Position numbers and translations under genes: made by a program. A stretch of DNA of 59,702 nt, the filler included. It is 5 parts of 5 records of this genome, joined end to end, with 100 filler letters (N's around TTAATTAATTAA, not from the genome) between each part and the next. Parts side by side here need not be neighbours in the genome. Positions count along the whole stretch, not along the records: positions 39,622 to 52,104 come from SRR31147125_1725; 4 more parts are not named here. One strand, written 5' to 3'. The notes under the pieces were generated by a model, which ran no database searches, had not been told where the DNA came from, and was given only the letters and a program-made list of their open reading frames with translations. Positions 1 through 51,624 of the stretch are shown here, piece by piece. Numbering within the stretch: position 1 is the first letter of the stretch; the number at the start of each line of letters is the position of its first letter.

Positions 1-977
1 TGGTCTTGCATTGGAGCTACCTGGGTAATTACATCAACCCAATCGGTACCTGCACCAAACGAAGCGGGATTGTCGAAAACTGCAGGTGCACCAATAGATT
101 CGCGCATGTCGTTGGTGTAATTGGCGTACTGTTCCCCGGTCATTGTTTCAATGGGGTTGTAAATCTTTTGAACACCGTAATAACCATTATAAGAAATTAC
201 GCCTTCGCCTTTTTTCCCTTTTTTAGTGGTAATAATAATAACACCGTTTGCTGCTCGCGCTCCGTAAATTGCTGCCGAGGCTGCATCTTTCAAAATATCC
301 ATCGATTCAATATCGTTTGGATTAATTGACGAAAGTGGATTGCTTTTTTCGCTGCCACCTCCCGAAATAGGAACACCATCGATAACATAAAGCGGATCAC
401 TGTTATTAAAACCACCAATACCACGAATACGAACAGAAACACCTCCGCCCGGAGTTGCACTGTTTTGCGAAACATAAACACCGGCTACTTTTCCTTGTAA
501 TCCCTGGTCGAGCGTTGCCGATGCATTTTTTGTAATGGCTTCAGCATTTACCGATGCAACCGAACCGGTAAGGTCTTTCTTTTTCATTGAGCCATAACCA
601 ATGGCAACAACTTCTTCAATTCCAATTGCATCAACTTTTAAAGTAATGTTTATAGTCGATTGCGTTCCAACTTGTTTTTCCTGCGATAACATTCCTACAA
701 ACGAAAAAACCAGGATATCATCAGACGAAACATCTTTTATTGAAAAAATACCATCAATATCAGTAACTGTTCCGCGTGCCTGTCCTTTTATAACAACGGT
801 CACTCCCGGTAGTGCCTCTCCACTATCGTCGATCACTTTTCCGCTTACATTTTGTTGCTGGTCTGATCTGGAATTCCCAATTCCCGCGTATGTAGTATTA
901 ACTATCGCCATCATGATAATTAATAGGGTAACGAGGGTCGATTTTTGAATCGTTAAGTTCATTTTTTTCCTCTTCAT
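1..977 (-). CDS. susC: SusC/RagA family TonB-dependent outer-membrane transporter, N-terminal part (runs off the window start)
   Basis: Manual translation from ATG 977, absent from the ORF track: MKRKKMNLTIQK...VSGKVIDDSGEALPGVTVVIKG...EEVVAIGYGSMKRKDLTGSVASV...PLYVIDGVP...INPNDIESMDILKDAASAAIYGARAANGVIIITTKKG. These are the carboxypeptidase-like and plug-domain signatures of SusC. Confidence 0.95.
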   Translation of the reverse strand, partial: MKRKKMNLTIQKSTLVTLLIIMMAIVNTTYAGIGNSRSDQQQNVSGKVIDDSGEALPGVTVVIKGQARGTVTDIDGIFSIKDVSSDDILVFSFVGMLSQEKQVGTQSTINITLKVDAIGIEEVVAIGYGSMKKKDLTGSVASVNAEAITKNASATLDQGLQGKVAGVYVSQNSATPGGGVSVRIRGIGGFNNSDPLYVIDGVPISGGGSEKSNPLSSINPNDIESMDILKDAASAAIYGARAANGVIIITTKKGKKGEGVISYNGYYGVQKIYNPIETMTGEQYANYTNDMRESIGAPAVFDNPASFGAGTDWVDVITQVAPMQD

Positions 978-1268
978 AAGTTTTAATTTGATTGTAAAAT
1001 TCGAACGCAAAGTATTATCCAACCTATTAAAATGAGCGAAACAAAAACATTAAAATGCTGGTTATGTGGTGTTTTAATGTTTTTTTAATGGTTTTTGTTG
1101 ATTTTGTTTTTGAAATATTACTTTTGAAGTGACTAACTAATATTGTTTTATATTGGACTGCATGGTAAAGAAATTAGGAACTGCCTAGAACAGGCAGATA
1201 ATACAATAATATGGAGAGATGTCAACGCTCCGGGGGATCCATGTAAAACATATCAAAAACAGAAAAGT

Positions 1269-2314
1269 ATGGACTTAACGAAATACAATCCCAGTTCAAA
1301 TTTTTTACTTTATAAAACGGCTAGTGGTGATGTTAGGGTTGATGTGTTGTTGCAAAATAAAACTATTTGGATGCCCCAAAAAAACATTGCTGAACTTTTC
1401 GGGGTAGGAATTCCTGCAATTTCAAAACATCTTAAAAATATTTTTGAAAACGAAGAGCTGGAGGAAAAAGTGGTTGTTTCCATTATGGAAATAACCACTA
1501 AACACGGTGCTATTACTGGAAAAGAGCAAACAAAACCTACAAAATTTTATAATCTTGATGCAATAATTGCCGTTGGTTATCGTGTTAATTCAAACAGGGC
1601 TACTCAGTTTCGGATTTGGGCAACAAAAATACTTCAAGAGCATATTATTAAAGGTTATACTATGGATGTGGAAAGATTAAAAAATCCACAACCAATTTTT
1701 GGAGAAGACTATTTTAAAGAGCAGCTCGAAAAAATACGCGATATACGCAGTAGCGAACGGCGCTTTTACCAGCAAATTACTGACATTTACGCTGAGTGTA
1801 GTATTGATTACGATGTAAATTCAGAAACAACCCGGAAATTTTTTGCTACTGTTCAAAATAAATTGCATTGGGCAATTACGGGCAAAACTGCCGCTGAAAT
1901 TATTGTTAACCGAGCAGACTATAAAAAAGATAAAATGGGTTTGACTTATGGAAAAATTCTCCGGATGGAAAAATTCGCAGATCTGATTTTGTTATTGCCA
2001 AAAATTATTTAAGTGAAAAAGAGCTAAAACCACTAAACCGAATTGTTACAATGTACCTTAATTATGCCGAAGATCAGGCAGAACAGGGAAATGTAATGAA
2101 AATGGAGGATTGGGTGGATAAGTTGGATGCTTTTTTACAGTTTAACCAAAAAGAAATATTAAATGATGCTGGCAAAGTAACGGCAGCAATAGCTAAATCT
2201 TTTGCCGAAGCCGAATACGACAAATATCGCATTGTGCAAGACCAACTTTTTGAGAGTGATTTTGATAAAATAATAAAGAGACAACTCTCTCAAAAACGGA
2301 AGGACATAAAGTAA
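1269..2314 (+). CDS. rhuM: Virulence RhuM family protein (one frameshift near 1947, probably a sequencing error)
   Basis: FLLYKT...TIWMPQKNIAELFGV...YNLDAIIAVGYRVNSNRATQFRIWAT...IRDIRSSERRFYQQITDIY...FFATVQNKLHWAITGKTAAEII. It continues in another frame as WKNSPDGKIRRSDFVIAKNYLSEKE...MYLNYAEDQA and joins ORF 2051-2314. Confidence 0.85.
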
Positions 2315-43029: not shown

Positions 43030-44291
43030 TTAAACAGGCTGGAATTTATCAGCCGTGAAGTTCAGAGTCGCGAAATAATCATCGACCGTTTCAGCGCGAC
43101 GAATCAGCTCAACAGAACCATCAGCACGCAGCAACAGCTCTTTGGGTCGCAGTCGTGCGTTGTACTGAAAGCCCATTGCATGCCCATGAGCGCCAGTATC
43201 ATGGATGACAACAATATCACCATCATCAATCTTCGGCATCGCTCTCTGTACCGCAAATTTGTCGTTGTTCTCACACAGAGAACCAACAATATCGTACACC
43301 TGATCGTGCGGCTGACCTTCTTTACCAACCACATCGATATGATGGTAAGCCTCATAAAGAGCAGGCCGCATCAGGGAGGACATACAGGCATCCACACCGA
43401 CATATTGGCGATACGTGTCCTTGCTGTTGATGGCAGAGGTGATAAGGCAACCGTGTGGACCCGTCATAAAGCGTCCACTTTCCATGTACATCTTCGGAGC
43501 GTAGCCGTGTTTCTCTTTGAAGCCATTGAACAGCTCGACAATCTCAGATGACATGCTCGCGATATCCAGCGCACTCTGGTCCGGCTGATACGGAATTCCG
43601 AAGCCACCACCGATATTGACGAACTCAAACGTGATTCCCAATTCGCTGGAGACAAGTTCGACAATTTCCAGAATCATCCGCGCCGTTTCAACCATATAGG
43701 TGTAGTCGAGTTCATTCGATGCAACCATCGTATGCAATCCAAAGCGTTTTGCACCACGCTGCTGCGCCAAACGATACGCCTCTACAACCTGATCATGGCT
43801 GACGCCGTACTTAGCCTCGACAGGATTACCGATAATGACATTTCCTGTCCGACGTGGTCCCGGATTGTAGCGGAAGCAGATCAGCTCAGGAAAACCGGAA
43901 CCTTCTCAATCAGAGACATGTCATCCAGGTTCAGTACACAGCCACCCTCGTCTGCAGCTGCCCCGAATTCGACCTGATCGGTATTATTTGACGTGAACAT
44001 GATATCCTCACCCCGAGCACCGACCTGACGGCTCAGGACTAGTTCAGCAATAGAACTGCAATCAAAACCGAAATCCATTTCGTGCATCAGTTCAAGAATG
44101 CGTGGATTCGGCAACGCCTTGACCGCGTAGTATTCTCGGAACCCATCAATCCCTGAAAAAGCAGCCTTAAGCTCTTCGCCTGTCTGACGAATACCCACCT
44201 CATCATAAACATGAAACGGGCTTCCGTAATGCTCAACAAGCTGTTCAGCGATAGGAAACAAACGATCTTTAAAACTTTGCGACATTGGCAT
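43030..44291 (-). CDS. lysA: Diaminopimelate decarboxylase (frameshift in T-run near 43892)
   Basis: YGSPFHVYDE; YYAVKALPNP; VPVF(P)ELICFRYNPG...AKYG; NIGGGFG; ESGRFMTG; VGSLCENNDKF; DTGAHGHAMGFQYN. Confidence 0.92.
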
Positions 44292-45964: not shown

Positions 45965-46180
45965 TCAACCAAAAACCGGGCTGCAATCTTTCTTCGCAGC
46001 ACTTTCCAGTTTTCTCTTCTGTTCAAGATAACGCTGGTCCTGATCGAGATGGCACTTTTTATATTTTTGCCCGCTACCGCACCAGCAGAGATCATTGCGT
46101 GACGGCAGTGTCTCAGGAGGCGGATCGCCTTCTGGCACAACAGTCTCTTCTTTTTTAAATAACTGACTGAGAAAACCCAT
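45965..46180 (-). CDS. Small SEC-C zinc-binding motif protein (may extend through TGA to the TAG at 45952-45950)
   Basis: PSRNDLCWCGSGQKYKKCH; the ORF ends DCSPVFG-TGA. Confidence 0.88.
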   Translation of the reverse strand: MGFLSQLFKKEETVVPEGDPPPETLPSRNDLCWCGSGQKYKKCHLDQDQRYLEQKRKLESAAKKDCSPVFG

Positions 46181-46281
46181 ACAACCTCTAATTCAATATC
46201 TTTACTTTAATCTTGCAACGTCACGATAATACGCTGACTCTTTACGTCATGTAAACCGGCAACCGGCTTTACAATTTCATG

Positions 46282-46782
46282 TTAATACGACTTACGGAAG
46301 TACGTACCATGACACTTCGGACAGGGTGGTATCCGTCCCGTCTTTTTCATATGGATCTGCTCAGTACATTTTTTACAAGACAGCGTTCCGGGGCTGGTAA
46401 TCTCTCCCGTTTTGAATTCTAGCTGCTGTTCAGACTTTTTCGCCCAATCACCAAGAGTGCTTGCCGCGTTAGACAAAACAGTCGAAAAAAGGCTCTGCAC
46501 ACCGACAGCAACACGCTTCGGTTCAACCGCTTCCTTAATGCTGTCTTTGGCCTTTGTGGCACTCTCGACAGCGTGCTGGACATCCTTGCGTATATAATTG
46601 ACAACTTTCTCAGTCTGTTCACGGGTTGTGGAACTGGCCGAGGAAAAATCTTCTGCCGCTTTTTTCAGGGCTTCATCAAAATTCTTCCGCCCGGAATCAA
46701 CCGCCTCATTGACCTGCTTGAGAATCTTTTCATACAAACTGACATCATCTTGATCATGATTATTTCGGCCTGAATCTGTCAT
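46282..46782 (-). CDS. Zinc-ribbon-containing protein (DUF1451-like)
   Basis: Helical N-terminus; C-terminal FKTGEITSPGTLSCKKC...GRIPPCPKCHGTYF; SD GGAGG upstream. Confidence 0.8.
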   Translation of the reverse strand: MTDSGRNNHDQDDVSLYEKILKQVNEAVDSGRKNFDEALKKAAEDFSSASSTTREQTEKVVNYIRKDVQHAVESATKAKDSIKEAVEPKRVAVGVQSLFSTVLSNAASTLGDWAKKSEQQLEFKTGEITSPGTLSCKKCTEQIHMKKTGRIPPCPKCHGTYFRKSY

Positions 46783-46862
46783 GGATACCTCCTCCTCTGA
46801 AAGAGCCCGACTCTATTACAAGAGTATCAGAAAACAGATGAATTTCAGATCGTTTCAACAAA

Positions 46863-47060
46863 CTAGCTGTCAGCGGTATCACCAGGCGTTAATGCCAGGA
46901 TAACGCCGACAAGACATCCGAACAGCCCCCCGTACCAGGGGTTCGATGTCGCACCTCAGGTACTCCCGGAGCACTGCCCGATATAACCGATCAAAGCACC
47001 AAGAGCCGTTGAAACGCTCGTCACCAGAAGAATCTTAACAACACGCTGCTTTTTCGTCAT
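46863..47060 (-). CDS. Predicted 65-aa two-TM selenoprotein with Cx4U motif (DUF6132-like)
   Basis: MTKKQRVVKILLVTSVSTALGALIGYIGQCSGST-U-GATSNPWYGGLFGCLVGVILALTPGDTADS*. The TGA at 46958-46956 sits at the second Cys position of the GCxxxxCxxTSNP motif, and the family-like sequence continues in frame after it. Confidence 0.75.
46913..46950 (-). promoter_or_regulatory. Bacterial SECIS-like stem-loop
   Basis: It begins 5 nt after the in-frame TGA: GACATC-GAAC-CCC-TGGTAC-GGG-GGGCT-GTTC-G-GATGTC. The GGU apical loop is about 19 nt from the UGA. Confidence 0.65.
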
Positions 47061-47073
47061 ACGCGCTGCTTTG

Positions 47074-47265
47074 CTACTTGTAACCGCCCGTGGCATCCGG
47101 TGTCGCGGGAAGAAAGGCAAGAATCAACAGAGTGACAGGGCCTAACAACAACCCCAGTGCAAACCAGACTTTCTTGTTATAACCCTTACCATTCGCCAAC
47201 GAGTAGGCCGCGCAAGGAAAAACCAGCCAGATAAACAGATATTCCATACTTCCTCCACAGGACAT
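47074..47265 (-). CDS. Small two-TM hypothetical membrane protein
   Basis: MEYLFIWLVFPCAAYSLANGKGYNKKVWFALGLLLGPVTLLILAFLP. The real start is probably the internal ATG after GGAGG. It stops 13 nt before the candidate selenoprotein start. Confidence 0.7.
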   Translation of the reverse strand: MSCGGSMEYLFIWLVFPCAAYSLANGKGYNKKVWFALGLLLGPVTLLILAFLPATPDATGGYK

Positions 47266-47501
47266 TATATGCGAAAAAAACTATCATAACCGATAACCCG
47301 CTAATTGTAACCTGATTCAGTCACGAAGGACGATTTATCAAATTTGAGCGGCTGGTGTGCACAGGGACTACTTTTCGGGTATAATGAAAAAAGAAAGGAG
47401 GACTGCCTATCGAAGACGAAACAGTGAAGCTGAGAAGGTATTCCATCCACTCGCAGACTGATTGGCTGCGAGAATTTCCGCTTACAGGAAAAACATAAAA
47501 A

Positions 47502-47876: not shown

Positions 47877-48742
47877 TCAACGCAGCAGAGACCTCTTCCG
47901 GCCCGATACGTTCGAAAGAAAGTTCCAGCGGCTGATGAAATCAAGATAGCCTAAACCGACACCGAGCAGGTCTGCAACCCCACCCATCGTTAAGCCAAGC
48001 GTTTGAAATTGCAGATCGAGACCTTCCAGGAGCGGATAAGGATTCAGCCCTTTCCGTATGACGCTCTCAATGTGCGCCCCCGACGACCTAACCAGACTCA
48101 ACCCTCCGGACCGCAGCGATGCAGACTGGTTGAATCGTCTACAACCTGCATCAGAACAGCCATACCAAGAAAGGGTCGCCAGTGCTGATCCACAGTATCA
48201 TCCAGCATCGCCGGCAGGAACACATCAAACAGAGATGGCAGACCATTCAGTGTTTCAGCGACAATCCCGCTCTCGGGTCTCTGCTGACGCACACGACTTC
48301 CATGGGTGTCAGCAGCGGTCCGCACCCTGAAAAACTCACTGGCGACACAAGCGATCTCCATCCTGAAACGATTCTGATCCCAGGGGGTCTGACACCGATA
48401 AGCGGCCACCAGAAACAGCCCGCAAAGAAAAATCCCCCCTTTATGACAGTTGGTCCCGGTCGCCGAAAACATGCGTTGTTCCGCTTTCTGCCCGCAACCG
48501 ATCAAAACATCGAGTTCAGCTCCCCTGTCAAGCAGGGCGCGAAGCTCCGCCAAATAGAGGTGCAACAAAGCGATCGACCAGCTCATCCCTTGAAGTGTCA
48601 GGTCGCCGTGTGACCCGCTGTTCTTCAAATCAACCAGGCCCGGCTTCGGAGTCAGATAAAGCTCACTTTTCAAGCCATCGATCAGGGATTCTGACAGCTG
48701 TTCACTTCGGAACTGTGCTGAGTAATCTTTCAGTTGCAGCAT
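47877..48742 (-). CDS. citG: Triphosphoribosyl-dephospho-CoA synthase (frameshift near 48100)
   Basis: ELYLTPKPGLVDLKNSGSHGDL; TGTNCHKGGIF; THGSRV; DDSTSLHRCG. It continues in a shifted frame as LSLVR...LTMGGVADLL. Confidence 0.88.
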
Positions 48743-49205
48743 GAATATCCTTCCAGTCATGGCGACCGGTACGCATACATTCCCGCGCATCCTCCTGACA
48801 GACAAGACATGTGCGCGGCTCAAAATTCAATTGTTGACGACCGATACTCTCCCCCGTTGAAGAGAACACGTCGAGATCGAGCAGTCGCGAGAATGGTGCG
48901 TACGATTCTATTTCACAACAGCGGATCTTGGTTTCCACGGCCGGCTGCGCTGTCATATAGATTGCCCAGGGGCCTAGAAGATCTGTGTCCTGATACAACT
49001 GCATCACGGTTGAACATGACAACCTGATCTGCTCATCAGCCCAGCGGAGTAGATCGTCCCCCTGAAGGGGACTCTTGTCAGGCCCAGGAATACTCAGAGA
49101 AACCTGAATCAACACATTGTCGGAATAGGCGATCACCTCGTCGAGACGCTGTTGCCTCTGATCCCGAGCCTGCAGAAAATCATTCTTTAACGCGTCTAAC
49201 AGCAT
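48702..49205 (-). CDS. citX: Apo-citrate lyase phosphoribosyl-dephospho-CoA transferase
   Basis: LQARDQRQQR; SLSIPGPDK; SRLLDLDV; PRTCLVC...CMRTGRH. Confidence 0.88.
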   Translation of the reverse strand: MLLDALKNDFLQARDQRQQRLDEVIAYSDNVLIQVSLSIPGPDKSPLQGDDLLRWADEQIRLSCSTVMQLYQDTDLLGPWAIYMTAQPAVETKIRCCEIESYAPFSRLLDLDVFSSTGESIGRQQLNFEPRTCLVCQEDARECMRTGRHDWKDIHAATERLLSTVPK

Positions 49206-50717
49206 CAATGATGCTCCCGTCACGATATTCGATCAAAGCGATAACATCGTCGGTCAGCTCAACCGGACGCGGGATTCCAGTAATCGCACAGGCTGATTTA
49301 TGGAGGTCATGTATCTCCTTCACCGGTAGCCGCCGTCTAAGCAGTTCCTTTTTCAACTCTGCCTGATTTTCATTCACAGCGATCCCACGCTCTGTCACGA
49401 TCACGTCTACGGTGTGTCCCGGTGTCGAGACGGTCATCACCTTGTCCCTGATGATCGGTAAGCGACCGCGCAACAGCGGCGCTGTGATAATTGACAATTG
49501 CGCTCCGGCGGCGGTATCACAGTGTCCGCCCGTGTTGTGAAGCAGGTATCCGTTCGACTCCGTATTGACGTTCACATTGAAATCAACATCAATTTCCGTG
49601 GCCCCCAGAATAACGGCATCAAGCCGGTTAACCATCGCTCCGGCGTTGAACGGATTTGCGTACGTGTCGGCGCTTAACTCCTGATGATGCAGACTGTGAC
49701 CGATCGATTCGACGGCCTTCAGATCGAAGCACTGAACATCATAAAGTGACTCGAACAGCCCCTCGTTCAACATATCGACAAAGTACCCGGTAATCCCACC
49801 GCAGCCGAAACTGCCCTTGATCTGCTGATCCGCCATCTTCTGACGGACTCTCTCAGCAACCGCGAGTGAAATCCCCCTGCTCCCGTCTGAAAAGAAAAAC
49901 CATTTTTCAGCAGGCCGGATGCTTCGATCACCTGGGCCGCGTAATGCGCAATCTGCAAACCGACCGGATCACGCGTGACCCGTGTCGTTGTTGACACAAT
50001 CTTGCTCGGATCGCCAAGAGACTCGACGGTCGCGACGCAATCAACCAGGGATTGCGGAATGGAAATCGGTGTCACCGCTCCATCTATCAGGTTATCGGTG
50101 ACGGCAATCACCTTCTCAGCGTACATGGCATCGGTATGTGCGTAACCAAGACTCCCGCAAGCTGAAGGACCGTAATAACCGTTCATGTTGCCGTAACGAT
50201 CACAGCATGGAGCGGCGATGAAGGCGGCATTGATTTTAACGTCACCACTGATAATCGAACGCGCACGACCGCCATGAGAACGGACAATAATCGGAGCATC
50301 AATCTCGCCCCGGGATGCCAATTCACCAATCGGCCCGTTGACACCACACTCAAAAGCAGTGATCACACCTTTTTTGATGTAAGGAACCAGTTCGGCATGA
50401 ACGGGATGAACAGAACTTGACGCGATGCGGATATCTTTCAATCCCAGAGCATCAATCTCTTTAATCAGGGCATTCAGCAAAGCGTCACCATTACGCAAAT
50501 GGTGATGCGTCGCGATACACATGCCATCCCTCAGCTCAGCAGCTTCAACCGCAGCGCGAAGGCCATTGACGACCTTGTCGGCACCGGGATTGAGCCGTCT
50601 GAGCGGACGGCTGCTGTGATGACAATCCGGTATCAGTGAAAATGGATCCTGGTAAGGAATGACTGCCCGTCCGGCAAATTTTTCCGGCAATAAACGACCG
50701 AGGCTATTTTTGACCAT
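49180..50717 (-). CDS. citF: Citrate lyase alpha subunit / CoA-transferase (frameshift in G-run near 49875)
   Basis: MVKNSLGR; THHHLRNGD; RSHGGRAR; SACGSLGYA; FSFQTGAGG(I)SLAV; GGITG; LGATEIDVDFNVNV; GGHCDTAAGA; IEYRDGSIID. Confidence 0.92.
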
Positions 50718-51624
50718 AGATCTCCTCCTCATCCAGAATCATGTCGATCAACCCGTGCGCCTGGGCAATTTTCAGAGTGTTCACTGACCGTTTAACAATC
50801 GGTGCGTCAATCATCTTGCCACGCAAGGAAATAACACCCGTTCCCATTTCACGGGCCCGCTTAATAGCATCAACAACCTCAAGAGCGTAATCGACTTCTT
50901 CCTGCTTCGGAGCGAATACTTCATGTATAACATCAATTTGTCGCGGATTAACCAGTGACTTTCCAGAGAAACCTAATGTTTTAATCAGCTTTGTTTCTTT
51001 TGTCAGACCGTCCATGTCGGACGCGTCGGGATAAATCGTATCGATGGCTTGAATGCCGGCGGCTTTACACGCCCAGACGACCCTTGTCCTGGCCGCGAAC
51101 AGCTCCTCACCTCCCCTGGTCCGTTCAATTTCAAGACTGGCCGTATAGTCTTCCGCCCCGAATGCGAGACCGATCAGGCGGGATGAGCTCCTCGCGGTTT
51201 TGATACAGTTGATGACACCCTCTGCTGTTTCAATTGAGGGAAGAATCTTGAAAAAACCGATCTCAAGGCCGAGTTCTTCCTCGTATTCCGTCAGCATCGT
51301 ATCGAGCTTTTCCACCAGTTCCGGCCTGTTGGCCTCCGGCAGACGGATCCCGTCCGGCAATGCCGGCAGAACCGCTCTCAAGTCATCTTCCCACCAATCG
51401 GTTGTCAATCCGTTGATTCGGACGAAAATCTCCTTGTTGTGATCTTTATAGGTTTCCAGAAAATGGCGTACCAGAACCCTGGCTGCATCCTTCTCACTAT
51501 AAGGAACGGCATCTTCCAGATCGATCATGACGCAATCACTGTGAAAGATCGGGATATTCTGTAGCATCGAAGGCATGTTGCCCGGGACATAGAGCAGCGA
51601 ACGCCGCAGACTGTAATCTGACAT
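50704..51624 (-). CDS. citE: Citrate lyase beta subunit / citryl-CoA lyase family
   Basis: RRSLLYVPGN; IDLEDAV; VRIN; IETAEG; FGAEDY; LGFSGKSLVNPRQI; GKMIDAP. Confidence 0.92.
   Translation of the reverse strand: MSDYSLRRSLLYVPGNMPSMLQNIPIFHSDCVMIDLEDAVPYSEKDAARVLVRHFLETYKDHNKEIFVRINGLTTDWWEDDLRAVLPALPDGIRLPEANRPELVEKLDTMLTEYEEELGLEIGFFKILPSIETAEGVINCIKTARSSSRLIGLAFGAEDYTASLEIERTRGGEELFAARTRVVWACKAAGIQAIDTIYPDASDMDGLTKETKLIKTLGFSGKSLVNPRQIDVIHEVFAPKQEEVDYALEVVDAIKRAREMGTGVISLRGKMIDAPIVKRSVNTLKIAQAHGLIDMILDEEEIYGQK

Follow-up and report, generated by a model that had tools for sequence, protein, structure and literature searches.

The closest described counterparts of the gene considered here, a small predicted membrane selenoprotein gene on the minus strand of a 59,702-nucleotide stretch of DNA (the window, filler included, to whose whole length all coordinates refer), are the cysteine forms of the Pfam family DUF6132 (PF19628). 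They share with it two glycine-rich hydrophobic helices, the loop between them, the sequence G-Y-x-G-[KQ]-C and the column of the second Cys or selenocysteine (Sec, U), and differ in that the subfamily found in the window has TGA for the second Cys codon, together with an RNA hairpin. More distant parallels exist among membrane-anchored proteins that have a redox-active Sec or Cys near the bilayer: the eukaryotic SELENOK and SELENOS are single-pass proteins with Sec near the C-terminus, CcdA has six helices, two of which carry one Cys each, and both DsbD and CcdA are linked to thioredoxin, a general analogy to which we return. The membrane selenoproteins of Table 1 in a 2026 review (PMC13188914) likewise carry Sec in or near a membrane segment, paired with Cys or Ser, and have a presumed role against soft electrophiles; unlike them, the window protein has the spacing C-x4-U, is much smaller with only two helices, and has no relation to them in Pfam or NCBIfam.

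The coding sequence occupies 46863..47060 (minus strand), starting with an ATG at 47060 and running through 65 codons to a TAG; its read-through translation (frame 47060..46863) is MTKKQRVVKILLVTSVSTALGALIGYIGQCSGST-U-GATSNPWYGGLFGCLVGVILALTPGDTADS. The N-terminus aligns with those of relatives (MKKRLLK...). Behind this basic N-terminus the product has a hydrophobic stretch rich in glycine, then the loop GQCSGST-U-GATSNPWY, another hydrophobic stretch and, at the end, a short tail that is acidic. From the sequence, helix 1 spans about residues 10-28 (46977..47033, minus strand) and helix 2, also hydrophobic and glycine-rich, about residues 44-57 (46890..46931, minus strand); the first codons of helix 2 overlap the 3' arm of the hairpin. 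The in-frame TGA is codon 35 (46956..46958), which we read as Sec, and it lies where the C-x4-C of the family has its second Cys. Cys30 (TGC, 46971..46973), which opens the C-x4-U, is nearly invariant across the family and is presumed to be the resolving thiol. An open reading frame (ORF) listing made with translation table 11 holds only fragments at this locus, 46956..47120 (54 residues) and 46879..46974 (31 residues), and an ORF track would miss the gene for that reason. Frame, translation and ORF listing all agree with the original prediction, made from the letters of the sequence, of a 65-codon minus-strand gene that the ORF track does not see because of a TGA at codon 35. We are confident that 47060..46863 is a genuine, unannotated selenoprotein gene coding for a 65-residue helical-hairpin membrane protein of the DUF6132 family with a C30-x4-U35 motif; that selenium is inserted at its UGA we infer.

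When U is read as C, the protein matches the DUF6132 profile with 54.9 bits (E 6.7e-15, against a gathering threshold of 23.2 bits), and since residues 5-59 align with profile positions 3-57 of 60 the match crosses the TGA. The search of Pfam and NCBIfam that had been proposed for the read-through protein thus returned a family above its cut-off on both sides of the codon, the family coming from Pfam; NCBIfam release 20 has no match for the window protein. The only other entry in the Pfam scan (E up to 1) was a sub-threshold one to DUF5862 (E 0.38). The scan gave no match to MerT, MerF or YeeE families, nor to the thioredoxin family, thioredoxin being encountered only fused to relatives of the protein or next to them. 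The read-through protein had no match in a word-indexed protein search; phmmer, run exhaustively against 1.84 billion representatives, found 89 relatives at E up to 1e-3, none more than 47% identical, all of which extend over the TGA position. In the consensus of these relatives, GYFG[KQ]C[ST][ST]G[TA]CPLT[AS]NP[WFY]RGA, the second Cys of C-x4-C corresponds to the TGA. The motif GCxSGxCxITSNP, which the original prediction had quoted, is roughly right, although the central part reads G-[KQ]-C-[ST]-[ST]-G-[TA]-C-P-L-T-[AS]-N-P here, and the placement of the TGA on the second conserved Cys is borne out by a 115-row alignment in which the first Cys is nearly invariant and the second column is invariably C or U.

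The TGA recurs at this column in many other genes. A degenerate DNA pattern with the TGA fixed met 28 loci in 596 Gb of genomes, where we estimate from its information content that about 2 would match by chance; 24 of the 28 are family genes in which the TGA is followed by the conserved U-G-x-T-x-x-P-W-x-G-A and helix 2. The remaining four were rejected as unrelated chance matches, and none of 600 pattern matches from a single-protein search of genome contigs was confirmed as a family locus. Scans with a hidden Markov model (HMM) that read through stops are free of the bias of the DNA pattern. They gave TGA in 28 of 31 matches within 23 genomes that carry pattern loci, in all 12 matches (10 genomes) among 401 genomes of one phylum, and in all 49 matches, exactly one each, from the order to which both the window and its relative G021 belong (48 of 201 genomes). 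The 301 genomes of a Planctomycetota sample yielded seven matches with TGA and eight Cys forms, in 12 genomes. Homologues with TGA at this column, which the original prediction had proposed looking for, are therefore found both with and without the pattern. In all, 76 further genes from at least five phyla have TGA at the same column and conserved protein beyond it, the records of those found by the pattern being assigned to Dehalococcoidia/Chloroflexota, Nitrospirota, Planctomycetota, Victivallales and Thermodesulfobacteriota. The 77-gene set used below consists of the window gene, the 24 genes found by the pattern, 48 from the order sample and 4 paralogs, and has an HMM-selected subset of 52.

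TGA and Cys forms are distinguished by more than one codon. The TGA forms have G after U and then P-W-S-G, the Cys forms P after C and then N-P-[YFW]-R-G, and each of the 77 TGA forms stands alone, at about 52-90 residues, without a thioredoxin fused to it. On a tree of the 115 rows, built on 48 columns only and with the Sec/Cys column masked, the Sec/Cys label changes twice, compared with a mean of 35.1 when labels are shuffled (0 of 500 as low), and the Sec forms may have a single origin. No Cys protein more than 47% identical to the window protein exists among the 1.84 billion representatives, and the subfamily would accordingly need something that Cys does not provide; this suggests that Sec is not exchangeable for Cys here. 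By our own reading of the translations the first Cys is missing in 3 of the 77 TGA forms (L079, L081 and L082), paralogs that have GKRAGGT-U (L079) or GSTHGG-U (L081 and L082) instead. In L079, moreover, Leu replaces the Trp after Pro, and P follows U as it does in the Cys forms.

Bacterial selenocysteine insertion sequence (SECIS) elements are stem-loops within the coding sequence directly 3' of the UGA, with G first in the loop and then G or U, and PMC13188914 gives their consensus as G in the first two loop positions at 16-37 nucleotides (nt) from the UGA. In the window, a SECIS-like core is formed by CCCC (nt 18-21 counted after the T of TGA) pairing with GGGG (nt 28-31) at 46928..46941, closed by the apical loop UGGUAC (46932-46937), which starts 18 nt after the UGA (all minus strand). 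The longer stem-loop of the original prediction (GACAUC/GAUGUC, GAAC/GUUC, CCC/GGG; 46913..46950, minus strand), whose GACATC begins 5 nt 3' of the TGA, is present as drawn, but its lower stems (GACATC/GATGTC and GAAC/GTTC) are specific to the window and not conserved in the alignment of the 77 genes. Judged by that alignment, what the family conserves as its SECIS core is the apical helix CCCC/GGGG and the GGU loop that caps it. From the TGA onwards, 66 nt align without gaps in all 77 genes, and columns 16-22 pair with columns 27-33 (consensus AGCCCCU-GGUC-AGGGGCU) to give a helix of 6-7 base pairs whose GGU(C) loop begins 19 nt after the UGA, a geometry that agrees with the consensus in PMC13188914. 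Pairing is formed in 89.3% of cells, compared with 33-66% when the partner is slid, both sides have changed in 20 cells (6.9 +/- 2.1 in shuffles, 0/500), and RNAalifold on 25 genes gives 6 pairs at -9.84 kcal/mol. The family differs from classical bacterial elements in that this helix is almost wholly set by conserved codons, with sparse classical covariation.

The helix runs through the conserved codons S-P-W-S-G-A, and the choice among synonymous codons is for that reason a sharper test. Among the 77 TGA genes, this Gly is encoded by GGG in 71 (against 149 of 852, or 17%, for Gly codons elsewhere in those genes), the Pro by CCC in 69 (against 17 of 74 elsewhere) and the Ser by TCA in 59. The bias persists in the pattern-free subset, with GGG in 47/52, CCC in 46/52, TCA in 46/52 and the loop GGUC in 48/52. 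A control set of 72 unique Cys-form genes from metagenome contigs has CCC in 12 and GGG in 20, averages 2.85 formed pairs out of 7, where the TGA forms reach 6.25, and folds with -6.7 kcal/mol (-11.6 kcal/mol in the TGA forms), a comparison that is clean only at synonymous positions because the Cys forms differ in their amino acids (N-P-Y-R-G-A). The hairpin, whose conservation the original prediction had made a point to check, is thus kept among TGA-bearing homologues and missing from the Cys forms. A hairpin after the UGA of selD itself exposes GGU in its loop in 5 of 5 genomes of the same clade; the loop there lies about 31-33 nt from the UGA, as against 19 nt in the DUF6132 TGA forms. Rfam has no match at its gathering threshold anywhere in the window, and the two hits seen on 46840-47070 at E up to 10 (mir-3492 and Thr_leader) were set aside as chance matches.

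The machinery that decodes UGA as Sec is present in the carriers. SelB scores above its curated cut-off in 21 of the 23 carrier genomes, the two misses being metagenome-assembled genomes (MAGs) of 1.1 and 1.7 Mb; in the order sample it is found in 47 of the 48 carriers, against 174 of 201 genomes overall, and tRNA-Sec, selA, selD and selB were all found in G021 and four other carriers. The genes selA, selB and selD adjoin one another at G021:C7:2029-6297 and in the equivalent regions of G074, G041 and G038; selD of these four genomes contains one in-frame TGA, and is thus itself a selenoprotein gene. At one locus from an uncultured bacterium, L007, selA (443-1888, minus strand) is the next gene downstream of the TGA-form DUF6132 gene and shares its strand. 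We would expect UGA to be recoded by SelB and tRNA-Sec as in standard bacterial Sec biology, directed by the short hairpin within the coding sequence, with its apical G-G-U about 19 nt past the UGA. The hairpin would be written into the codons for (S/N)-P-W-x-G-(A/G), and the TGA subfamily would keep both the P-W-S-G peptide and particular synonymous codons because the hairpin is encoded there. The decoding mechanism would be the standard bacterial one.

Several observations weigh against this interpretation. The folding check suggested in the original prediction failed to support it, since the minimum free energy of -20.4 kcal/mol has a z score of +0.44 and 132 of 200 dinucleotide shuffles are at least as stable. 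The window hairpin is an outlier among its relatives, with Tyr TAC for Ser TCA at +8 and GGG for GCN at +10, and because of these codon changes is left with a 6-nt loop and four core pairs. Run on the full set of 77 genes, RNAalifold returns 3 pairs only, in a shifted register and at -2.07 kcal/mol; the CCCC/GGGG run makes alternative registers possible, and the overlap of the helix with conserved codons limits covariation. As the 77 genes are related, the shuffle figures and the Fisher figure for selB in the order sample (p 0.0065) overstate independence, and the latter is also a weak test because 87% of the order has selB. The sole selB-negative carrier in that sample is a fragmented MAG. 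Scans of the window found no tRNA and no selA, selB, selC or selD gene within it, and of 27 candidates for a second TGA-interrupted gene in the window, none has a domain that spans its TGA. We infer the Sec machinery of the source organism from its relatives.

Fusions of the Cys forms provide the first functional lead for DUF6132. Thirty-eight of the 89 relatives have at least 120 residues, of which 32 are DUF6132-thioredoxin fusions, one (P0024) is a fusion with AhpC/TSA (peroxiredoxin) and one (P0076) is a tandem DUF6132 protein, the last two also being Cys forms. Thioredoxin is encoded directly upstream of two TGA-form genes, L012 (where it has a lipoprotein-like signal) and L024, and Grx-PDZ neighbours two others, L028 and L082. 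An HdrD-like CCG/Fe-S protein (L002 and L003/L021), a rhodanese-TusA-DsrE fusion (L012), SelA (L007), OsmC (L008) and MsrA (L019) also count as neighbours in favour of a redox role. Mean lysine and arginine counts in the TGA forms (2.06 in the N-terminal tail, 0.33 in the loop and 1.36 in the C-terminal tail) suggest that the N-terminus is inside and that the loop faces away from the cytoplasm. The loop would alternate between selenol/thiol and selenylsulfide states and would be reduced by a thioredoxin-type partner. Granted that the gene is real, we regard as evenly poised the proposal that the C-x4-U loop serves as a thiol/selenol redox centre, anchored in the membrane and supplied by a thioredoxin-type reductant.

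This proposal too has points to its discredit. AlphaFold2 builds a helical hairpin (helices 3-31 and 41-57) with U in the loop at modest confidence (mean predicted local distance difference test score 66.5, predicted template-modelling score 0.37), and among solved structures the only matches were chance ones to a transporter helix, at E 0.4 or worse. The topology is drawn from lysine and arginine counts only, and with both termini inside, a fused thioredoxin and the loop would be on opposite sides of the membrane, which a simple redox model leaves unexplained. Since 3 of the 77 TGA forms have no first Cys, a selenylsulfide cycle is not universal. No neighbour is conserved across phyla either; a Na/Ca exchanger occurs at 16 of the 77 loci and DUF1451 at 9, both confined to the window's clade, and such clade neighbours (DUF1451, SEC-C, Na/Ca exchanger and AsnC) may be mere synteny.

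The main rival on function accepts the selenoprotein but has the C-x4-U bind or pass a soft metal or metalloid (Hg, Cu or As), or act at the membrane as a carrier of sulfur or selenium in persulfide or selenotrisulfide form, in the manner of small Cys-pair mercury-transport membrane proteins or of a YeeE/TusA-type sulfur relay. The outline of the protein indeed resembles the "putative mercuric transport protein" and YeeE/YedE selenoprotein forms of Table 1 in PMC13188914, and the forms that have lost the first Cys suit carriage by a single ligand better than a dithiol cycle. Neighbours found at single loci include a rhodanese-TusA-DsrE fusion (L012), a TauE sulfite exporter (L027) and CorA (L020 and L024), to which the Na/Ca exchanger of the window's clade can be added. 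On the other hand, the Pfam scan recovered none of the MerT, MerF and YeeE families, the 92 neighbours that we scanned include no mer, ars or cop genes, and the main fusion partner is thioredoxin (32/89), with one peroxiredoxin besides. We consider metal, metalloid or sulfur/selenium handling possible but rather unlikely, and the evidence from fusions and neighbours leans towards thioredoxin-linked redox chemistry instead of metal handling.

Following the redox proposal further, the TGA subfamily could be an obligate-Sec minimal membrane redox module of about 55-70 residues, with Sec at the outer face or inside the bilayer. It might pass reducing power from partners of the thioredoxin type on to targets in the membrane or periplasm, like a DsbD/CcdA in miniature, or reduce peroxides derived from lipids or quinones as GPx4 does, with P-W-S-G kept mainly for the SECIS. 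We offer this extended picture as speculation and hold it doubtful; if true, P-W-S-G would be a case of RNA structure dictating conserved protein sequence.

Two other readings of the UGA itself are both very improbable. The first takes it as a real stop that yields a 34-residue peptide with one helix, the downstream conservation being due to a separate small ORF or to occasional read-through. Bacterial Sec insertion does compete with termination, and a truncated product may coexist with the full-length one. TGA also terminates 17 of the 52 HMM-selected family genes, and hence is an ordinary stop in the carrier genomes, recoding being site-specific with no change of genetic code. However, the downstream segment has no conserved start codon and is in frame with the upstream part in 77 of 77 genes, the Pfam model aligns continuously over the TGA, the Cys forms encode both helices as one protein, and the hairpin with its codon bias is specific to the TGA forms.

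The second has UGA recoded to a residue other than Sec, either Cys through a tRNA with the anticodon UCA, or Trp or Gly through near-cognate or variant-code reading. Insertion of Cys would give a working protein, to judge from the Cys of the relatives at this column, and two database proteins have W there. Both resemble TGA-bearing genes closely (L007, and L011/L019/L027), and for this reason we take the W to be a TGA that was probably read as Trp by the gene caller, most likely through its choice of code. A genome-wide code change is excluded by the use of TGA as a stop even within the family, and the full Sec machinery of the carriers, the bacterial SECIS geometry with loop letters shared with the selD hairpins of the same clade, and the lack of any close Cys-bearing protein among the 89 phmmer matches all argue against insertion of another amino acid.

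Assembly error had to be weighed because the window contains split genes. A 61-kb Logan contig of a public run (X1) spans 46500-47500 with 6 substitutions and 1 insertion in 1001 bases and retains the TGA unaltered at a word depth of 21, in keeping with the claim of the original prediction that the TGA does not come from the usual sequencing error; one of the substitutions, at 46926, alters a codon of the hairpin synonymously. As this run is possibly the window's own sample, it counts as a second assembly and not as independent biology. The genome of G021 shows synteny with the window, at a DNA identity of about 70%, and has a TGA gene in the same slot beside DUF1451. That the TGA arose through faulty sequencing or assembly, or through a recent nonsense mutation (TGC/TGT to TGA) in a decaying Cys-form gene, is hardly credible even though the split genes and an extra A behind 47386 in the other assembly point to indel errors, since an indel would break a frame that is intact on either side of the codon, the TGA recurs in 76 genes including that of G021, the protein after it is conserved and then the hairpin is under selection at synonymous sites, and recurrence across phyla makes error untenable as a general explanation. 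The split or truncated genes near the locus are CitF, divided between two ORFs that overlap, CitG, of which there is a fragment, and an Orn/Arg decarboxylase broken in two (gene-damage regions 49180-50732, 48098-48823 and 43030-44291); the extra A behind 47386 is seen in the X1 assembly. Indel errors are probably present in the window, and nearby frames are untrustworthy.

In line with the original prediction, the family is not known to have been characterised as a selenoprotein. DUF6132/PF19628 and the C-x4-U spacing are absent from the 119 selenoprotein families of Table 1 in PMC13188914, and full-text literature searches brought up no description of the family, under the names DUF6132 or PF19628 or more widely. 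Nor is it described in the passages considered from PMC12013277, PMC1914089 and PMC1242214, whose supplementary tables could hold unlisted candidates. For 4 TGA forms, 2 W-form proteins and 2 Cys forms that stand alone, NCBIfam gave nothing beyond noise below threshold, and it has no model for 11 family proteins; the fusion protein P0030 meets its thioredoxin models through the fused domain only. The subfamily is nearly absent from protein databases, NCBIfam and the 119-family inventory because gene callers cut at the UGA, and genome annotation and counts of selenoproteome size are affected by its omission. A two-helix membrane protein of about 60 residues would be an unusual and widespread addition to the bacterial selenoproteome, its TGA form being carried by about a quarter of the sampled genomes of one order (48/201). 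It offers a compact system for asking what Sec does at the membrane that Cys cannot, and as several carriers are complete genomes of the Desulfuromonadales-type order, direct tests look feasible.

Upstream of the selenoprotein gene lies a 63-residue hydrophobic ORF (47074..47265, minus strand), for which neither Pfam nor NCBIfam has a match. Its end is 11 nt short of the selenoprotein start, and the two may be co-transcribed; a similar small upstream ORF is found at 6 of the 77 loci, all in the window's clade. Downstream is a zinc-ribbon gene of the DUF1451 family (46282..46782, minus strand; PF07295, E 1.1e-30), syntenic in G021. It forms, with the gene of a 71-residue SEC-C-motif (metal-binding) protein, a block on the same strand after the selenoprotein gene (45965-46782), beyond which come a Na/Ca exchanger and then an AsnC regulator; the block is syntenic in G021.

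No single partner recurs among the 92 neighbours of 28 cross-phylum TGA loci that made up the neighbour survey, in which OsmC (L008), MsrA (L019) and CGGC (L080) each adjoin a TGA form at one locus. In a Victivallales MAG, the rhodanese-TusA-DsrE fusion and the thioredoxin with a lipoprotein signal both lie directly upstream of the TGA-form gene (L012:3-1783, plus strand). In Dehalococcoidia/Chloroflexota MAGs, an HdrD-like protein of roughly 640 residues (CCG domains and a 4Fe-4S dicluster) is encoded on the same strand and ends about 90-110 nt before the TGA-form gene (L002:2-1921, L003:2-1939 and L021:2116-4053, the last two being near-identical).

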